DNA of 64,000 bases from positions 84,824-148,823 of the forward strand of contig JBKEEF010000012.1 in the NCBI GenBank assembly GCA_047975765.1, written 5' to 3'. Each line of letters starts with the position of its first letter. The first letter of the stretch is position 1. Both the position numbers and the translations under genes were made by a program. Under the pieces are notes generated by a model. It ran no database searches and had not been told where the DNA came from. It saw only the letters and a list, made by a program, of their open reading frames with translations. The stretch is from Alphaproteobacteria bacterium. GTDB taxonomy: Bacteria; Pseudomonadota; Alphaproteobacteria; RF32; CAG-239. Shown piece after piece: positions 2,991-55,528 of the stretch.

Positions 2991-3662
2991 TTACACATCT
3001 GTTTTGAGGGAAATACCAAATTCCCTCAAAATTTGTATGAGTTCAGCGACATAAAATTTTTCATGATAATCAAAAAAACCGTCTGAGGTGGCAATTTTCA
3101 TTGCTTCTTTTACCAATTTTAAAGCCTCTTCTGGTGTTTTAGACTGAATATTATTCAATGCACCATAAAAATCTTCCTCACTTGGATTGAGCGTTGAAAT
3201 ATAGTTTCTGATATAACTTTCACTCAAAATCTTAGCTTCAGGTTTAAGTGCAATGATATAATCCTCTATTGCCTTGATTTTAATTGGAAGGAGTTTTCCG
3301 TCACAAGTTGCAATAAAACTCAAAATGATAATATCATCTTGAAACTCTTTAAGAGAACGAGGAATGTTTTTATTTTCTTCTTTTGTTTCAGGTTGTTTCT
3401 CTGATTGACTATGTATAAATTCTTCAATCACTTCATGTGCATTTGCATAAATCTTATTGCTGTTTAGATTTGAAATGGAGCGAATATAAAACATATCCAA
3501 AACTTGAGATTTTTTTTTGGAATAGATATATAAATCAAAAAATGTAGATTCACCTTTTTTCCAGATATTTTTGATTGCAGCTTCTTCAATATGCATTCTG
3601 CCATTATCCAGAAAGCTAACTTTCATATTATAAAAAGGAAGGTCGGAATATTTCTGATTCAT
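2991..3662 (-). CDS. hypothetical protein with C-terminal TerB-like (tellurite-resistance TerB / DjlA-N-like) domain
   Basis: 223 aa. The C-terminal half (ILSFIATCDGKLLPIKIKAIEDYI ... KEAMKIATSDGFFDYHEKFYVAELIQIL) matches the TerB-fold pattern. The N-terminal half is unrecognised. Confidence 0.45.
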   Translation of the reverse strand: MNQKYSDLPFYNMKVSFLDNGRMHIEEAAIKNIWKKGESTFFDLYIYSKKKSQVLDMFYIRSISNLNSNKIYANAHEVIEEFIHSQSEKQPETKEENKNIPRSLKEFQDDIIILSFIATCDGKLLPIKIKAIEDYIIALKPEAKILSESYIRNYISTLNPSEEDFYGALNNIQSKTPEEALKLVKEAMKIATSDGFFDYHEKFYVAELIQILREFGISLKTDV

Positions 3663-12723: not shown

Positions 12724-13959
12724 ATGAAAAAAAAGATACTAACCTTAACAGCACTCAGTGCTATTCTTGTTGCCTCAAATGCTCATGCATCTGGCTTTCA
12801 TCTTAAAGAACAATCAGTTTCAGGTTTAGGAACAGCATTTGCGGGTTCATCTTCAGGTGGTCAAGACATTTCTGCGTCTTATTTCAACCCTGCAGTATTA
12901 ACAAGATATAAAGGATCTCAAATTGTTTTCGGTGCAACTTATGTTGCCCCAACAGCAAAGCTTAAATATGCAAGATCAACAGCTGCACCAGCTCAAGTAG
13001 ATGGTCCATCAAGTGATGTGGTAAGCAATGCTGTTGTTCCAAATTTTTATGCTTCTAAACAACTAAATGACGACATTTTTCTTGGAATTTCTTTCAACGC
13101 ACCTTTTGGTTTGGTCACAAAATATGATGATAACTGGGCTGGTCGTGACCATGGCACATTGTCTGATTTAAAAACCTACACAATGACTCCAATGCTTGCT
13201 TATAAAATGGATGATAAAATGTCTGTGGGTGTTGGTGCTCAAATTCAACACGTTAAAGCAAGATTGAGAAATGGTGTTGTTGCAGGACAAGGACAAGCTG
13301 TATTAGAGGGTGATACAACTGATGCAGGATATGTTTTTGGTGCACAATATGAATGGCGAAAAGACACACGTTTTGGTGCCGGTTATAGAAGTCGTATTCA
13401 CCACAAACTCAAAGGTGACATTGACCTTACAAATGTTACACCTATGCCAGCAATGAATGGCTCATACCCAATCAATGCAGAATTAACAACACCTGCAGTT
13501 GCCAGCTTTGGTATCACACATGACCTCAATGAAAAAGTGTCTTTGATGGCTGAATTTCAAAGAACATATTGGAGTGTCTTTGATGAACTTCGCATTAAAG
13601 GTGTTCCTGGAGGCGACAGTGTAACTCCTGAAAAATGGAAAAATACAAATTTCTACTCTATCGGTGCTTCATATCAATTAAACGATGAGTGGAAGCTTCG
13701 TGGTGGTCTTGGTTTCGATAAATCTGCAGTTAAAAAAGAATATCGCACTCCAAGAATTCCTGATTCAAATCGTAACTGGTATTCACTTGGTGCTCAATAT
13801 AAACCAAATGAAAAGATGGCGATTGATATGGGTTATACTTTCATCAGAGCTGCTGACGGAGCTAAAATCAATTTAGCTAATAAGGTAGGCGGTTCTTTGC
13901 AAGCTGACTATAAATCTTACGTTCACATCATTGGTGTAGGCGTAACTTATAACTTCTAA
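12724..13959 (+). CDS. fadL: long-chain fatty acid outer-membrane transporter, FadL family
   Basis: 411 aa. Signal peptide. N-terminal SGFHLKEQSVSGLGTAFAGSSSG resembles the FadL hatch-domain N-terminus ([20 protein letters not shown] in E. coli). C-terminal YNF. Confidence 0.85.
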   Translation: MKKKILTLTALSAILVASNAHASGFHLKEQSVSGLGTAFAGSSSGGQDISASYFNPAVLTRYKGSQIVFGATYVAPTAKLKYARSTAAPAQVDGPSSDVVSNAVVPNFYASKQLNDDIFLGISFNAPFGLVTKYDDNWAGRDHGTLSDLKTYTMTPMLAYKMDDKMSVGVGAQIQHVKARLRNGVVAGQGQAVLEGDTTDAGYVFGAQYEWRKDTRFGAGYRSRIHHKLKGDIDLTNVTPMPAMNGSYPINAELTTPAVASFGITHDLNEKVSLMAEFQRTYWSVFDELRIKGVPGGDSVTPEKWKNTNFYSIGASYQLNDEWKLRGGLGFDKSAVKKEYRTPRIPDSNRNWYSLGAQYKPNEKMAIDMGYTFIRAADGAKINLANKVGGSLQADYKSYVHIIGVGVTYNF

Positions 13960-22778: not shown

Positions 22779-22815
22779 AAAGCCCTGAAAAAAAAAAATT
22801 CAGGGCTTCAATTTT
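22779..22815 (+). terminator. rho-independent terminator (A-rich loop)
   Basis: AAGCCCTGAA a9 TTCAGGGCTT followed by a T-rich run. Confidence 0.6.
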
Positions 22816-22894
22816 ATTTTATTGCATAATTTTCAAAAAAAAAAAAATAGAATATATTTTGATATATTATCATTAACTAATTATTTTATAATTT

Positions 22895-23545
22895 ATGGAA
22901 ACACCTCAATTTATTGTTCTCTTATTCATCTTTATTGTATTTGCAACCATTGCAGCTCGAATTTATCTTTCGACACAGCTCAAGAATGCTAAATCTATTG
23001 CAGACAAATGGGAGATTGACTTTCATGATGTTTTTACCAAAGCACATGAAGCTGAGCGGATTCTTAAGTTGCTTGACATTCTTAAAAAAGTTCAATTAAA
23101 CAAAGGCTCTGGTATTTTAGCTGTTATTGAAACACAGCTTTATCAAGACTATTCTCTTTCATTAGCTGAAAAAAAGATGGCTCAATTTCGAAACAAAGAA
23201 ATTGAACTCTCAGAATTTCAGCAAAGAAAATTCTTGATGAAAATTGTTGAAAGAAAAGCATTGGATACAAGTATTGTCTATCAGGGGCTTGCCGAAGATC
23301 TTCTTTCTTTGCAGTTTTATACTCAAAAACTAGATTCCTTAACGGAAACTTTTGGAGACTACCTCAAACTTCATTCAAAAATCACTCTAGATGACATTTT
23401 GAATTATAGCGAAGGAAAGAGTTCTTTTGTTGATAAGGTTTATGAAAGAGTGGAAAGCCGTGTTGATGCTTATGAAACACTTAAGCAAAACATGGAAAAT
23501 GCAACCAATCGATTTCTAGAAGTCAGAAAAATTTTTGATGAATAA
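22895..23545 (+). CDS. hypothetical membrane-anchored coiled-coil protein
   Basis: 216 aa. N-terminal TM (FIVLLFIFIVFATIAARIYL), then coiled-coil-like heptads. Confidence 0.5.
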   Translation: METPQFIVLLFIFIVFATIAARIYLSTQLKNAKSIADKWEIDFHDVFTKAHEAERILKLLDILKKVQLNKGSGILAVIETQLYQDYSLSLAEKKMAQFRNKEIELSEFQQRKFLMKIVERKALDTSIVYQGLAEDLLSLQFYTQKLDSLTETFGDYLKLHSKITLDDILNYSEGKSSFVDKVYERVESRVDAYETLKQNMENATNRFLEVRKIFDE

Positions 23546-37705: not shown

Positions 37706-37737
37706 AAGAGCCCCAATTTTTAGAAATTGGGGCTCTT
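37706..37737. terminator. bidirectional terminator hairpin
   Basis: AAGAGCCCCAATTTttagAAATTGGGGCTCTT. Confidence 0.55.
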
Positions 37738-37893
37738 ACTTAAAGATATGTTTCACGTTGCTTGTTGATAATTTGGTACATTTCTTCTTGAACTTTGACC
37801 TTATCAATGACTTTCTTGATAATTTCTTCGGCTTGAGAAAAAAGTGAATAATCTGCAGGAGCAATAAAACCCACTCTTTTATCTTTAAAAAGT

Positions 37894-38598
37894 TCAACAG
37901 CCATTTTTTTTTGAAGAAGGTTTTCTTTCTTCAAAAACAGCTAGTGCATGTCCGCCTTGTTGTCTCACAATTTTCATACATGGAACATCTGTTTCACCAT
38001 CACCAATATAAATCATCTGCGAAAAATGAATATATTTCTCTTCATGAGGAACATATTGGTTTACTCTGGTGTTCTCATAATAATTAAAAATACCTTTGTT
38101 AATTCTGAACAAATGTTGTGTTTTGTTTGTGTAGTTCACAGCAGTTGCTGTCCCAATAGCTTTTCCTTCATCATCATACAAGAAACTACTTGCAAAAATA
38201 TGTTTGAAGTTTTCAGCAATTTCTGTTCCCCGAATCATCTCTTCAAGCCCGGAGGAAATGATATAATGTTCGACTTCTACACCAACTTCTTCACCATATT
38301 GATTGATTCTATCGAACCAAGTATCAAGTCCGTTAAAGAGTGGAATTTCTCGTCCAAAATCAATCATATCCTCTTGGGTCAATGAAAGTCCTCTTTGTTT
38401 TACCTCTTCAAGCATAAGATACATATAGGAAATGATACTGTCCATATTATGTTTCTTTGCAAAATCATTGTTCTCTTTCCAAAATTCTTGAGGATTAATC
38501 CCAAATTTGGGAAAGAAAGAGAACTCCTGCATATAGCCTGAAGATAAAGTTCCGTCAAAATCATAGCAAATTGCTATTTTGGTATTCATTTTTTTCAT
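37894..38598 (-). CDS. HAD-superfamily phosphatase-like hydrolase, probably frameshifted at an A9 run (full length would extend to about 37740)
   Basis: Motif I DFDGTL. Motif IV IYIGDGETD. The ORF stops just after an A9 homopolymer (plus-strand T9 at 37904-37912). The alternate frame continues 54 codons with only a TTG start. Confidence 0.65.
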   Translation of the reverse strand: MKKMNTKIAICYDFDGTLSSGYMQEFSFFPKFGINPQEFWKENNDFAKKHNMDSIISYMYLMLEEVKQRGLSLTQEDMIDFGREIPLFNGLDTWFDRINQYGEEVGVEVEHYIISSGLEEMIRGTEIAENFKHIFASSFLYDDEGKAIGTATAVNYTNKTQHLFRINKGIFNYYENTRVNQYVPHEEKYIHFSQMIYIGDGETDVPCMKIVRQQGGHALAVFEERKPSSKKNGC

Positions 38599-38634: not shown

Positions 38635-39714
38635 TCAACGTCCGCCGTTTCTGCCTTTTCCAAATTTTATAAAGCTTGGCTGAACATATTTTTGCGCAGG
38701 TTCGTGAGCCTTTGTCTTTTTAAAGATTGCCATATCTTCTTTCATTTCTTCTCTATGGCTAACATAAATTTCGCTCACATCAACAACACCTAGTCTTGGA
38801 TGCACCATAAACAATGTTTGGCTTGGATATTCAGCTTCCAATTTCAAGTCTCTGGCATACTGATTATAACCAGGCATATTCGAATTGACAATAGTATGTT
38901 CTAGTTTCAAATGTCTATGGAAATGCCCCATCAAAACCCAATCAATATATTTACCTTCCTGTGCATATTTCTGACGTGTTTTATATTGCCCTTTTGCAAT
39001 TGTTGCACTTACACCAATGAAACCTGTTCCGCCTTTTGCTCCTATTCTGTCACCATGAATTGCTAAGAAATTTGTTCCATAAACTGGGAAGAAAGCTTCC
39101 CCTGATTTTGGAGTTAGAAAACTGACATTCTTTGCTTTTTCAAAATGTTTTTCAATGAACATTGTTGAAATTGAATCATAACTTGTTTCAACAAAATTTT
39201 TAGATTCCGGTTTTTTGGTTGTTCTTCCATGATTTCCAGGAACAGAGACTATCCAAACATTTTTGAACTCTTTGCGAAAAGTTTCAATCATTCTGCATTC
39301 CTGCTTAGCACATTCAACGGCTGCTGCAATTGGACCCAGAGCATTTGTCTTATCTAGCTCATTATGAATGTCTCCTGAAACAGTATCTCCCAGACGGCAG
39401 ATGACAATTCCAGGTGCTTTTTTGCCTCCCTTACCACGAAGTTTGAGAATTGTATTATTCGTTAAACGCTCAATTCTCTTATTCGCAACTTCAACATTGC
39501 AATTGACACCATCTATTTCAACAGGGTCCACAACTTCGCCATAGTGAATATCACTTGTGAGCAAGACAGGAATATTTGGCAACCCAGTCACAAGAGCTTC
39601 ATCTTGTCCAACTTCTGACCATTCTGGAAGGTTGAACGGCTCCTCGCTCAAATGAAAGATTTCTTCTCTCAAGTTTTGTGCATGGTATAGTTCATCGTGA
39701 ACATCCTGCAACAT
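38635..39714 (-). CDS. calcineurin-like metallophosphoesterase. True start probably the ATG at 39868, lost by a 1-nt frameshift in an A8 run
   Basis: Motifs SDIHYGE (DxH), GDTVSGD (GDxxD), GNHG, HGD, GHFHRH (GHxH). The in-frame ATG at 39714 has no SD. An ATG at 39868 has an AAGAGGA SD but is +1 out of frame across the A8 run at 39854-39861. Confidence 0.7.
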   Translation of the reverse strand: MLQDVHDELYHAQNLREEIFHLSEEPFNLPEWSEVGQDEALVTGLPNIPVLLTSDIHYGEVVDPVEIDGVNCNVEVANKRIERLTNNTILKLRGKGGKKAPGIVICRLGDTVSGDIHNELDKTNALGPIAAAVECAKQECRMIETFRKEFKNVWIVSVPGNHGRTTKKPESKNFVETSYDSISTMFIEKHFEKAKNVSFLTPKSGEAFFPVYGTNFLAIHGDRIGAKGGTGFIGVSATIAKGQYKTRQKYAQEGKYIDWVLMGHFHRHLKLEHTIVNSNMPGYNQYARDLKLEAEYPSQTLFMVHPRLGVVDVSEIYVSHREEMKEDMAIFKKTKAHEPAQKYVQPSFIKFGKGRNGGR

Positions 39715-39991
39715 TTGTGCATAGTGTTTGATTTTGTTTTCATATACTTTTTTTTCGCTAGCTCCTAGTCCTATTTTTCCATCATATTTTGCTAGCTCAT
39801 CTTTTAATTTTTCTCTTAGTTTATCCTCTTTTGCTTCGACATCGCTAACTTTCTTTTTTTTCGCTCATTTTTATTTTCCTCTTGATACAAATTCAAATTA
39901 AAAAAAATCGCGAATAATATTTCATCAATAGTATATCAAGTGGCAAATCCGGATTGTCACTTCAAGGTTATAAAAATTTTCAAAATAATCA

Positions 39992-40030
39992 TGAAAAAAG
40001 GCTACTGAATTTTCAGTAGCCTTAAAAAAC
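39992..40030 (-). terminator. terminator-like hairpin with T-run on the minus strand
   Basis: Minus strand: AGGCTACTGAAaatTCAGTAGCCttttttt. Confidence 0.45.
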
Positions 40031-40294
40031 TTAAAAAAGTTCCTTATCTAATCTCTTACCGTCTTGTATGATACATAATTTTTTCATTATATGTTCCCTA
40101 ACAGTTACAACTAAATCTATATCAATTTTTATATAGTTTAAATATTTTATTTATTTTTTTACACAGGCAAAAAAGATGCCCCGATACATGAAAAAATCGG
40201 GACATCCATTTAAGGAACTATAATAATTTTGGCAGTTTTACTAAAAATGCACATGACAACATTTTTAAAAAACTCTCGAACATCCAAATTTTTT

Positions 40295-40520
40295 ATTCAA
40301 AAAAAACCCACCAATATCAAGAGGCGGGCGGATGTTCGAAAACCGTATAAAGCTGGACGGCTCGGCTTATTTGGCAAAGCCTTATTCACCGACATCCGCC
40401 CATAAAGACAGAAATCGGCAACTTTTTTTAGGTCGCATGCACAACGACCAGCCTTATTTTAAGGGTTTTCGAAGCCCTGAGCAGAAAAACACTCTGCCTA
40501 GCTGGAAGCATATTTGAATT
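40295..40520 (-). ncRNA. candidate structured small RNA or GC-rich palindromic repeat cluster ending in a rho-independent terminator (identity unknown)
   Basis: Local GC well above the surrounding non-coding DNA. Several stems (GGGCGGAUGU/ACAUCCGCCC, GGUCG/CGACC, CCAGC/GCUGG). Minus-strand terminator CCCGCC-loop-GGUGGG followed by U8 at about 40295-40325. Confidence 0.3.
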
Positions 40521-40676
40521 TCACCTATTTTACAAGCACTTATTTATATATTTCATTTCTTGTGTGCTTTCTTAAAAAGTTGCGATAATTCATCATAACC
40601 CAAAGCTATCCTTCTATGGTATCTAGCAAAGAGAGTTAGTTATTTTGAATATACTACCTAAAAGAATATATACCTA

Positions 40677-54844: not shown

Positions 54845-55528
54845 ATGTTTGAAAAAAAAGTTATCATTTGGGATTTAGATAATACGCTTTATAGAGTCAC
54901 TGAAGAATTTGGACACAGACTCGATGAAACAATGGCAAAAGTTTCCATTGAAGAGCTTGGGCTAGATCTTGACTTTGAAACTGCTCTAGAAAAAGTGAAG
55001 GAATCTTTTGCAAAGTATCGTGATGGTGGAGAGATTTTTTATCGAGACCATGGCATTAGCATTGAAGACTTCTATCATGCCTACCATAACAATGTCCCAT
55101 ACGAAGAAATCGTTCCTTATGATGGTCTATATGAGCTTCTTTCAAAGATCGAAGTTGAACAATATATCTTCACATATAGCAGTAGAGATTTAGCAGAAAA
55201 AATTCTCAAGAAAATTGGTCTTTATGAAATTTTCAAAGACAGATTCTATTCTGTTGAAGACTTTGGATCTTTCAAAAAAAATGAAAGCTGCGATATTTAT
55301 CATGATTTATGTGTAGCAATCAAACATGACCCTAAAGATTGCCTCTTTGTTGATGACAGTTATTCCAATCTGGAATTTGCAAAAGAAGCTGGTATGACAA
55401 CCGTTCGCCTCTTCTATAACAGCAATTCATCAAAAGACAAAGAATATATTGATCATGCCTATAAAGGGATTTTTGCTTTCTTAAAAGACTATGAAAAAGC
55501 GTGTCCAAGTAAAAAAAGAGCAGGATAA
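54845..55528 (+). CDS. HAD-superfamily hydrolase (subfamily IA, pyrimidine 5'-nucleotidase-like)
   Basis: 227 aa. Motif I IIWDLDNTLY. Motif IV FVDDSYSN. Confidence 0.7.
   Translation: MFEKKVIIWDLDNTLYRVTEEFGHRLDETMAKVSIEELGLDLDFETALEKVKESFAKYRDGGEIFYRDHGISIEDFYHAYHNNVPYEEIVPYDGLYELLSKIEVEQYIFTYSSRDLAEKILKKIGLYEIFKDRFYSVEDFGSFKKNESCDIYHDLCVAIKHDPKDCLFVDDSYSNLEFAKEAGMTTVRLFYNSNSSKDKEYIDHAYKGIFAFLKDYEKACPSKKRAG

Follow-up and report, generated by a model that had tools for sequence, protein, structure and literature searches.

The window analysed here is a 64,000-nt stretch (34.4% GC) of the 362-kb contig JBKEEF010000012.1, covering positions 84,824–148,823 of the forward strand in assembly GCA_047975765.1, a MAG that derives from a single sample and is labelled Alphaproteobacteria bacterium. 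The interval between PBP1C and Fe-ADH holds two minus-strand genes separated by a gap of 36 nt: a metallophosphoesterase (MPE) gene and, downstream of it, a HAD-family gene that matches the PADLOC model PDC-S34. Both reading frames are interrupted at a run of adenines, an A8 tract in the first codons of the MPE gene and an A9 tract towards the 3′ end of the HAD gene. The features of the locus are collected in Table 1.

Table 1. Features of the MPE and HAD genes and their surroundings (window positions).
Feature	Position	Strand	Remark
Intrinsic terminator, 14-bp stem	37706–37737	−	Immediately follows the stop codon that ends the stranded HAD C-terminal frame; probable original 3′ end of the unit
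Stranded HAD C-terminal 54 codons, +1 frame (MAVELFKDKRVGFIAPADYS...)	37740–37904	−	Full-length relatives have homologous C-termini
HAD-family / PDC-S34 gene as annotated, 234 aa, MFV0626663.1	37894–38598	−	Frameshift-truncated; C-terminus ...KPSSKKNGC, then stop
A9 tract (plus-strand T9)	37904–37912	−	Second +1A frameshift site; A8 restores a 285-aa protein
MPE ORF in GenBank, 359 aa, MFV0626664.1, ACK5N8_04885	38635–39714	−	Starts at an ATG that lacks an SD and maps midway along predicted helix 2
MPE reading frame, 409 codons and stop	38635–39864	−	The stranded N-terminal extension spans residues 1–50, with predicted helix 1 and some of helix 2
13-mer AGCGAAAAAAAAG, second copy	39747–39759	−	Its A8 is in frame; first copy at 39865–39853, 106 nt away (35 codons + 1)
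Residual 7-codon ORF, MSEKKES and TAG (39847–39845)	39845–39868	−	What the good RBS would now translate
A8 tract (plus-strand T8)	39854–39861	−	Most likely +1A frameshift site; codons 3–5; A7 or A10 restores the frame
Probable ancestral MPE start codon, ATG	39866–39868	−	Homologue N-termini align downstream; no other MPE-frame start before 39714
Shine-Dalgarno AAGAGGA	39877–39883	−	8 nt between SD and ATG 39868
Intrinsic terminator, 11-bp stem and T-run	39998–40023	−	Upstream of the unit; separates it from the PBP1C operon

The Shine-Dalgarno sequence, the ATG, the frame MSEKKES with its stop and the A8 run, all of which an earlier note on this DNA had read from the minus strand, lie at the positions given in Table 1, and the mini-ORF reads ATG AGC GAA AAA AAA GAA AGT TAG. 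The MPE frame is indeed open far upstream of the annotated gene; its limit is 39864 and not 39865, as the note had it, since a TGA at 39867–39865 closes the frame. Within this frame ATG 39714 is the first ATG, GTG or TTG, giving the 359-aa product, and the 22 nt upstream of it (caaaatcaaacactatgcacaa) hold no SD, again as had been claimed. No alternative ATG, GTG or TTG occurs in the MPE frame between 39864 and 39714, and the in-frame ATA and ATC codons of that stretch, read from the sequence, have no convincing SD. The 150 nt that stand open before the first MPE start are the longest such stretch among the 53 large ORFs in the window. SD motifs carry information about starts in this genome: an SD-like motif precedes about half of naive gene starts in the window, compared with 7% of all its ATGs, and a 5-mer SD at the right spacing is found at only 3.1% of all window ATGs. 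The frame break lies between 39868 and ~39835, an interval in which no other site is nearly as mutable as the A8 tract. Deleting one A from the tract yields a protein of 410 aa with the N-terminus MSEKKKVSDVEAKEDKLREKLK, in line with the length of roughly 410 aa previously projected. Full-length translation of the two genes would produce the junction peptides SEKKKVSDVEAK and KPSSKKMAVELFK, and initiation at the internal start would produce the N-terminus MLQDVHDELYHAQNLR.

The window contains exactly two copies of the 13-mer AGCGAAAAAAAAG, which includes the A8 tract, against 0.04 expected. They both fall within the 5′ portion of the MPE gene, and S-E-K-K is encoded by each in its own frame. 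Were the first copy to have A7, the two would stand in register but would no longer match perfectly. The second copy could thus have served as template for the A7-to-A8 change, as an alternative to simple slippage.

Comparison with relatives bears directly on whether the stretch ahead of ATG 39714 is coding. The MPE protein has 729 homologues, the best non-self match being 53% identical, and the closer ones (44–53% identical, 377–432 aa, mostly from phages) are contiguous. Their N-terminal helices and segments align to the proposed extension, for example MSDQDRLSKKIEETIEKVYDKNNPYIEIYKNKLNQLIKNY with KEDKLREKLKDELAKYDGK...KVYENKIKHYAQML, and homologue P0017 has the N-terminus MSKKTTVSKEPESELQQLEQKLA where the repaired MPE has MSEKKKVSDVEAKEDKLREKLK. 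A family profile built from 21 homologues, with the window sequence left out, aligns from residue 13 of the repaired MPE, and scores 513.6 bits with the extension versus 497.1 bits without it (+16.5). The match to PHROG 284 (E 6.2e-41) covers residues 16–370 of the frame translation on profile positions 60–396 of 398, and begins ~35 residues upstream of the Met encoded at 39714. At the DNA level, the six homologous loci inspected each have an uninterrupted ORF with an in-frame start at its head and no separate mini-ORF. In the AF2 model, computed on the 409-residue frame translation (pLDDT 83.6), long N-terminal helices are predicted at residues 2–29 and 35–70, and the second of these has the Met encoded at 39714 near its midpoint.

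From the contiguity of the homologues, the alignment of the profile from residue 13 and the bits contributed by the extension, we infer that the ancestral MPE gene started at or very near ATG 39868. The proposal in the earlier note, that the gene is frameshifted at the A8 run with its true start one frame off, is therefore borne out, and the comparison with orthologues that it suggested, here at the family level (best 53% identical), likewise shows a contiguous protein in relatives. Closer MPE orthologues were sought among GTDB species representatives, which are at most 45% identical, and in JGI metagenomes, where no MPE relatives were found; among ~5.8 billion protein clusters, none exceeded 53% identity to the MPE protein or 61% to the HAD protein. 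Without a sister-strain orthologue the comparison rests on the family level, and the ancestral states of the two tracts (A7 in the MPE gene, A8 in the HAD gene) are reconstructed rather than observed.

The rest of the MPE gene is intact. All PF00149 motifs are present (numbering of the repaired protein): SDIHYGE (D106/H108), LGD (G160 D161), GNHGR (N212 H213), HGD (H271) and GHFH (H315 H317). The motif residues are invariant in a 30-sequence alignment, with the exception of H108. The protein deviates at none of the 57 columns that are conserved at 90% or more, and the gene body is thus without decay. Its Pfam PF00149 score of 17.7 bits (E 0.005) falls under the gathering threshold of 21.5; the family is too divergent for the Pfam sequence model. 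The fold itself is that of the metallophosphoesterases, which all top Foldseek PDB matches of the AF2 model share: Mre11 4tug (E 2e-6), acid sphingomyelinase 5jg8, and DNA polymerase epsilon / replisome entries 7pfo_A and 6hv9_B. Searches of NCBIfam and PADLOC with the MPE protein gave no matches, and a PDB sequence search nothing meaningful.

Phage records name the MPE relatives 'exonuclease', 'DNA repair exonuclease' or 'DNA polymerase II small subunit', names that are based on similarity and not on assays. The resemblance to the PHROG 284 phage 'exonuclease' family, with its Mre11/SbcD-like fold, comprises the PHROG match itself, the complete set of metallophosphoesterase motif residues and Mre11 as the best structural match. 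The protein differs in its Pfam Metallophos score below threshold, in its N-terminal two-helix extension, in its modest structural similarity to Mre11 (TM 0.35–0.43) and in having no adjoining Rad50/SbcC partner. The function of PHROG 284 is likewise assigned by similarity, with no assayed member in the records. No gene for a Rad50/SbcC-type ATPase lies beside the MPE gene, which is flanked on one side by the HAD gene and on the other by an ORF-free gap that leads to PBP1C, and no SbcC-like gene was seen adjoining MPE in the homologue contexts. These contexts are replication modules of large phages, an opposite-strand insert among tail genes, and solitary chromosomal genes. On a 227-kb phage contig (L004, 8001–9170), the MPE homologue is the lone plus-strand gene among minus-strand tail and baseplate genes; on two bacterial contigs (L006 and L009) it is solitary, with a terminator and ~700 nt of non-coding DNA upstream. 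The layout at these three loci is reminiscent of a free-standing mobile or moron-type gene. Among more distant MPE homologues are proteins with N-terminal HTH-like regions, one of which is named 'transposase-like' by its source.

Beyond what the earlier note described, the adjoining HAD gene carries a lesion of the same type at its A9 tract. Past this tract the +1 frame reads MAVELFKDKRVGFIAPADYSLFSQAEEIIKKVIDKV... and aligns to the C-termini of HAD homologues, which are 277–310 aa long compared with 234 aa here. The match to PADLOC PDC-S34 improves from E 1.6e-103 and 344.1 bits (profile positions 1–229 of 284) for the protein as annotated to E 2.4e-115 and 382.8 bits (1–280 of 284) once repaired, a gain of 38.7 bits. 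The gene accordingly resembles PDC-S34, a single HAD-family gene, in its strong match to the model and its full profile coverage upon repair, and differs in being frameshifted; PDC-S34 is itself only a candidate defence system, and a literature search found no paper naming it. The best HAD relatives are at most 61% identical, with variable neighbours (NUDIX, AbiEii or NrdD genes). A conserved pairing of the MPE and HAD genes was considered and rejected, as homologues of each sit in different contexts. In the gene calls of the Logan assembly (see below), the stranded HAD C-terminus appears as a separate 54-aa gene.

Because intrinsic terminators lie both upstream of the MPE start and after the stranded HAD frame, the two broken genes look like one bicistronic unit, presumably with a shared transcript. 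Both genes also look accessory, given the variable contexts of their homologues elsewhere and their lack of close relatives in databases. Most likely, the MPE and HAD/PDC-S34 genes form a small, horizontally acquired and presumably dispensable two-gene unit. A compositional island signal was not found at 37.9–40.7 kb, and exact look-ups with the MPE, HAD and Fe-ADH proteins returned matches in one sample only.

The region upstream of the unit has features of its own. Between the stop of PBP1C and the start of the MPE gene, ~800 nt (39869–40676) hold no ORF longer than 61 aa, an exceptional length of such sequence in so gene-dense a window, and include the strong terminator (40023–39998) as well as an sRNA-Xcc1-like element; they may be remnants of a degraded gene or contain unannotated RNAs. 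The element, at 40318–40401 on the minus strand, is a sub-threshold match to Rfam sRNA-Xcc1 (RF02221), with 39 bits against a gathering score of 53 and E-values of 1.3e-5 to 4.4e-5. It covers the full model (1–87), has a long closing stem, and is 55% GC in a 34% GC genome. As the sRNA-Xcc1 family has been reported from integrons, genomic islands and the APSE phage (PMC7313666, PMC12189769), the element hints that the interval is derived from a mobile element. No sRNA-Xcc1-like hits were obtained near MPE homologues in five other loci.

To place the two tracts among the homopolymers of the window, every homopolymer was scanned for ±1 indels that merge ORFs. No other homology-supported homopolymer frameshift was found in the window. 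The remaining candidates were rejected, since the merged extensions were low-complexity junk or the indel joined two clearly separate genes; AnmK was checked and is intact, as are long genes of 1152, 1891 and 1131 aa. The 64 kb contain 27 A8/T8 runs, the majority of which lie in frame within ordinary genes. An A8 at 12727–12734 directly follows the ATG of a full-length FadL-type porin, another at 54852–54859 lies at codon 3 of a second, full-length HAD-like hydrolase, and a plus-strand T9 at 3510–3518 places an A9 within ORF 3662..2991, which has a TerB domain match. All three are in frame and are potential hot spots for future slippage. The longest homopolymers of the window, an A11 (22788–22798) and an A13 (22835–22847), are intergenic and lie upstream of ORF 22895–23545, where they could affect promoter spacing or transcription.

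The interpretation that we favour, and consider reasonably probable, is that the two tracts represent real +1A slippage alleles within a two-gene unit that was acquired and is dispensable, and that these OFF or attenuated alleles are nascent pseudogenes, with slippage as the presumed cause. The MPE gene would first have begun at the SD-preceded ATG 39868 and encoded a protein of ~410 aa with an N-terminal pair of long helices. Expansion of its tract by one base, from A7 to A8 in codons 3–5, would have shifted the MPE frame, such that ribosomes loading at the good RBS would halt after seven codons and the catalytic domain could be made only from the SD-less internal ATG 39714 or by rare slippage. 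In the HAD/PDC-S34 gene, expansion from A8 to A9 would have stranded the last 54 codons. Both expansions are most economically attributed to recent replication slippage; the lesions are taken as recent because neither gene shows other decay, although this absence of further decay is equally compatible with continued function via the internal start or slippage. A pseudogenising or phase-variable slip was among the three causes offered in the earlier note, and fits best.

The phenomenon is an ordinary one, a homopolymer frameshift in accessory genes, for which the 5′ poly(A) tract of Listeria monocytogenes inlA offers the closest comparison (Orsi et al. 2010, PMC2831843). There the gene is in frame at A7 and runs into a stop after amino acid 8 at A6; insertions in this tract are ~10-fold more frequent than deletions, and the measured switching rates are ~5.5e-7 for A6 to A7 and ~4e-8 for A7 to A6 (PMC2831843). 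The two cases share a poly(A) run in the first codons, a one-base change, an otherwise intact gene, a tiny residual product (8 aa in inlA, 7 aa here) and the attribution to slippage. They differ in that both inlA alleles occur in natural isolates, with rates measured, whereas only the out-of-frame A8 is seen here, in one sample. Moreover, inlA encodes a surface protein, whereas the gene here encodes a phage-type nuclease (by similarity) and is accompanied by a second lesion in the neighbouring gene.

The inlA comparison also bears on reversible phase variation, under which the poly(A) tracts would serve as contingency switches, turning the nuclease and the PDC-S34 candidate ON and OFF in the population, and the consensus would have caught both genes OFF. 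An A8 tract in codons 3–5 of the MPE gene has the classical architecture of such a switch, as in inlA (PMC2831843), both genes are intact otherwise, and the lesions sit in neighbouring genes, one of which matches a candidate anti-phage model. Phase variation is frequent among defence genes. However, A8 runs are common in this 34% GC genome, as counted above, and the MPE tract is not specially long; the poly(A) switching rates measured in Listeria are low; and the HAD tract lies at the 3′ end of its gene, an atypical position for a switch. Tract-length polymorphism would not be observable in one sample. On balance we regard reversible switching as unlikely. A related idea, that the MPE nuclease and PDC-S34 form a functional anti-phage or otherwise costly module gated by poly(A), through ON/OFF switching or trace-level slippage of a toxic nuclease, strikes us as quite doubtful. 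A shared function of the two genes is unproven, their pairing not being conserved elsewhere.

It is likewise improbable that the lesions are artefacts of sequencing or assembly, the genome being in truth A7 and A8 with both genes intact. Such an explanation would draw on the fact that homopolymers of at least 8 nt are the commonest sites of indel error, that the MAG comes from a single sample, that both lesions would be +1 over-calls in the same direction, and that both genes are otherwise flawless. Against it, run SRR30067233 was also assembled separately with a de Bruijn graph (Logan), and the result agrees with the window at 100% of 21,080 bases without gaps, both tracts included; as this assembly probably derives from the same reads, it excludes assembler error and remains compatible with read error. 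Furthermore, 16 other A/T runs of at least 8 nt inside reading frames, including the A9 of the TerB-domain gene, are unbroken, and two random lesions among 53 genes would fall in neighbouring genes only ~4% of the time.

If the slippage alleles are genuine, full-length proteins might still be made routinely from A8 and A9 by transcriptional slippage or +1 ribosomal frameshifting, a functional recoding that we judge very unlikely. Slippage on A-runs can rescue interrupted genes, as in Citrobacter rodentium tssM1 (A11), with ~20% rescue (PMC4256274), and A8 appears productive in some IS elements, with ~10% rescue reported for the apoB A8 run (PMC1088944); the lack of further decay in either gene would also suit recoding. 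However, the two-frame layout is not conserved, as the six homologous loci inspected are uninterrupted and the homologous proteins are full-length. No stimulatory RNA structure follows the MPE tract, the stretch 39900–39800 being unstructured (MFE −2.9 kcal/mol, z +1.37), and the codon after the tract is an ordinary GAA. Both lesions need a −1 or +2 change, whereas single-base additions predominate in A/T-run slippage (PMC5574713). The MPE tract is also shorter than the ~9 nt from which selection against slippage is usually evident (PMC1088944). Transcriptional slippage sites are typified by a run of ~9 or more at a conserved position; the MPE A8 is absent from that position in homologues, and at the position of the HAD A9 the aligned homologues are diverse in sequence. 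The locus thus shares with documented 'pseudo-pseudogenes' (Baranov et al. 2005, PMC1088944; tssM1, PMC4256274) the interruption at an A-run, the intact downstream part and the homology to full-length relatives, and differs from these cases, which involve 9–11 A and mainly insertions, in having A8 and A9 that both call for −1 (or +2) and are unconserved. Low-level rescue of the MPE and HAD genes by slippage may nonetheless occur.

Finally, the leader-peptide arrangement raised in the earlier note, in which MSEKKES would be a regulatory mini-ORF (uORF) and the real gene would start at ATG 39714, is extremely improbable: although a strong RBS does drive a 7-codon ORF upstream of the 359-aa ORF annotated in GenBank, the reading fails because the supposed spacer, 150 nt open in the MPE frame, is coding sequence homologous to the N-termini of relatives, and it is further opposed by the SD-less ATG 39714 inside a predicted helix, by the six homologous loci that start at the ORF head without a mini-ORF, and by the 131 nt between the mini-ORF stop and ATG 39714, probably too far for coupling.

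The annotation of the locus can be corrected accordingly: MFV0626664.1 (359 aa) and MFV0626663.1 (234 aa) are truncated readings of genes whose ancestral products were probably ~410 and 285 aa. Genes without close relatives can slip past frameshift detection in MAG annotation, and their truncated proteins then reach large catalogues. If the reads had mixed tract lengths, the locus would illustrate on a small scale how homopolymers can switch accessory or defence genes in an alphaproteobacterium that is uncultured. In the interpretation favoured here, slippage towards nascent pseudogenes, it would capture gene inactivation at its first step in an AT-rich genome, with single-A expansions confined to an acquired two-gene unit.
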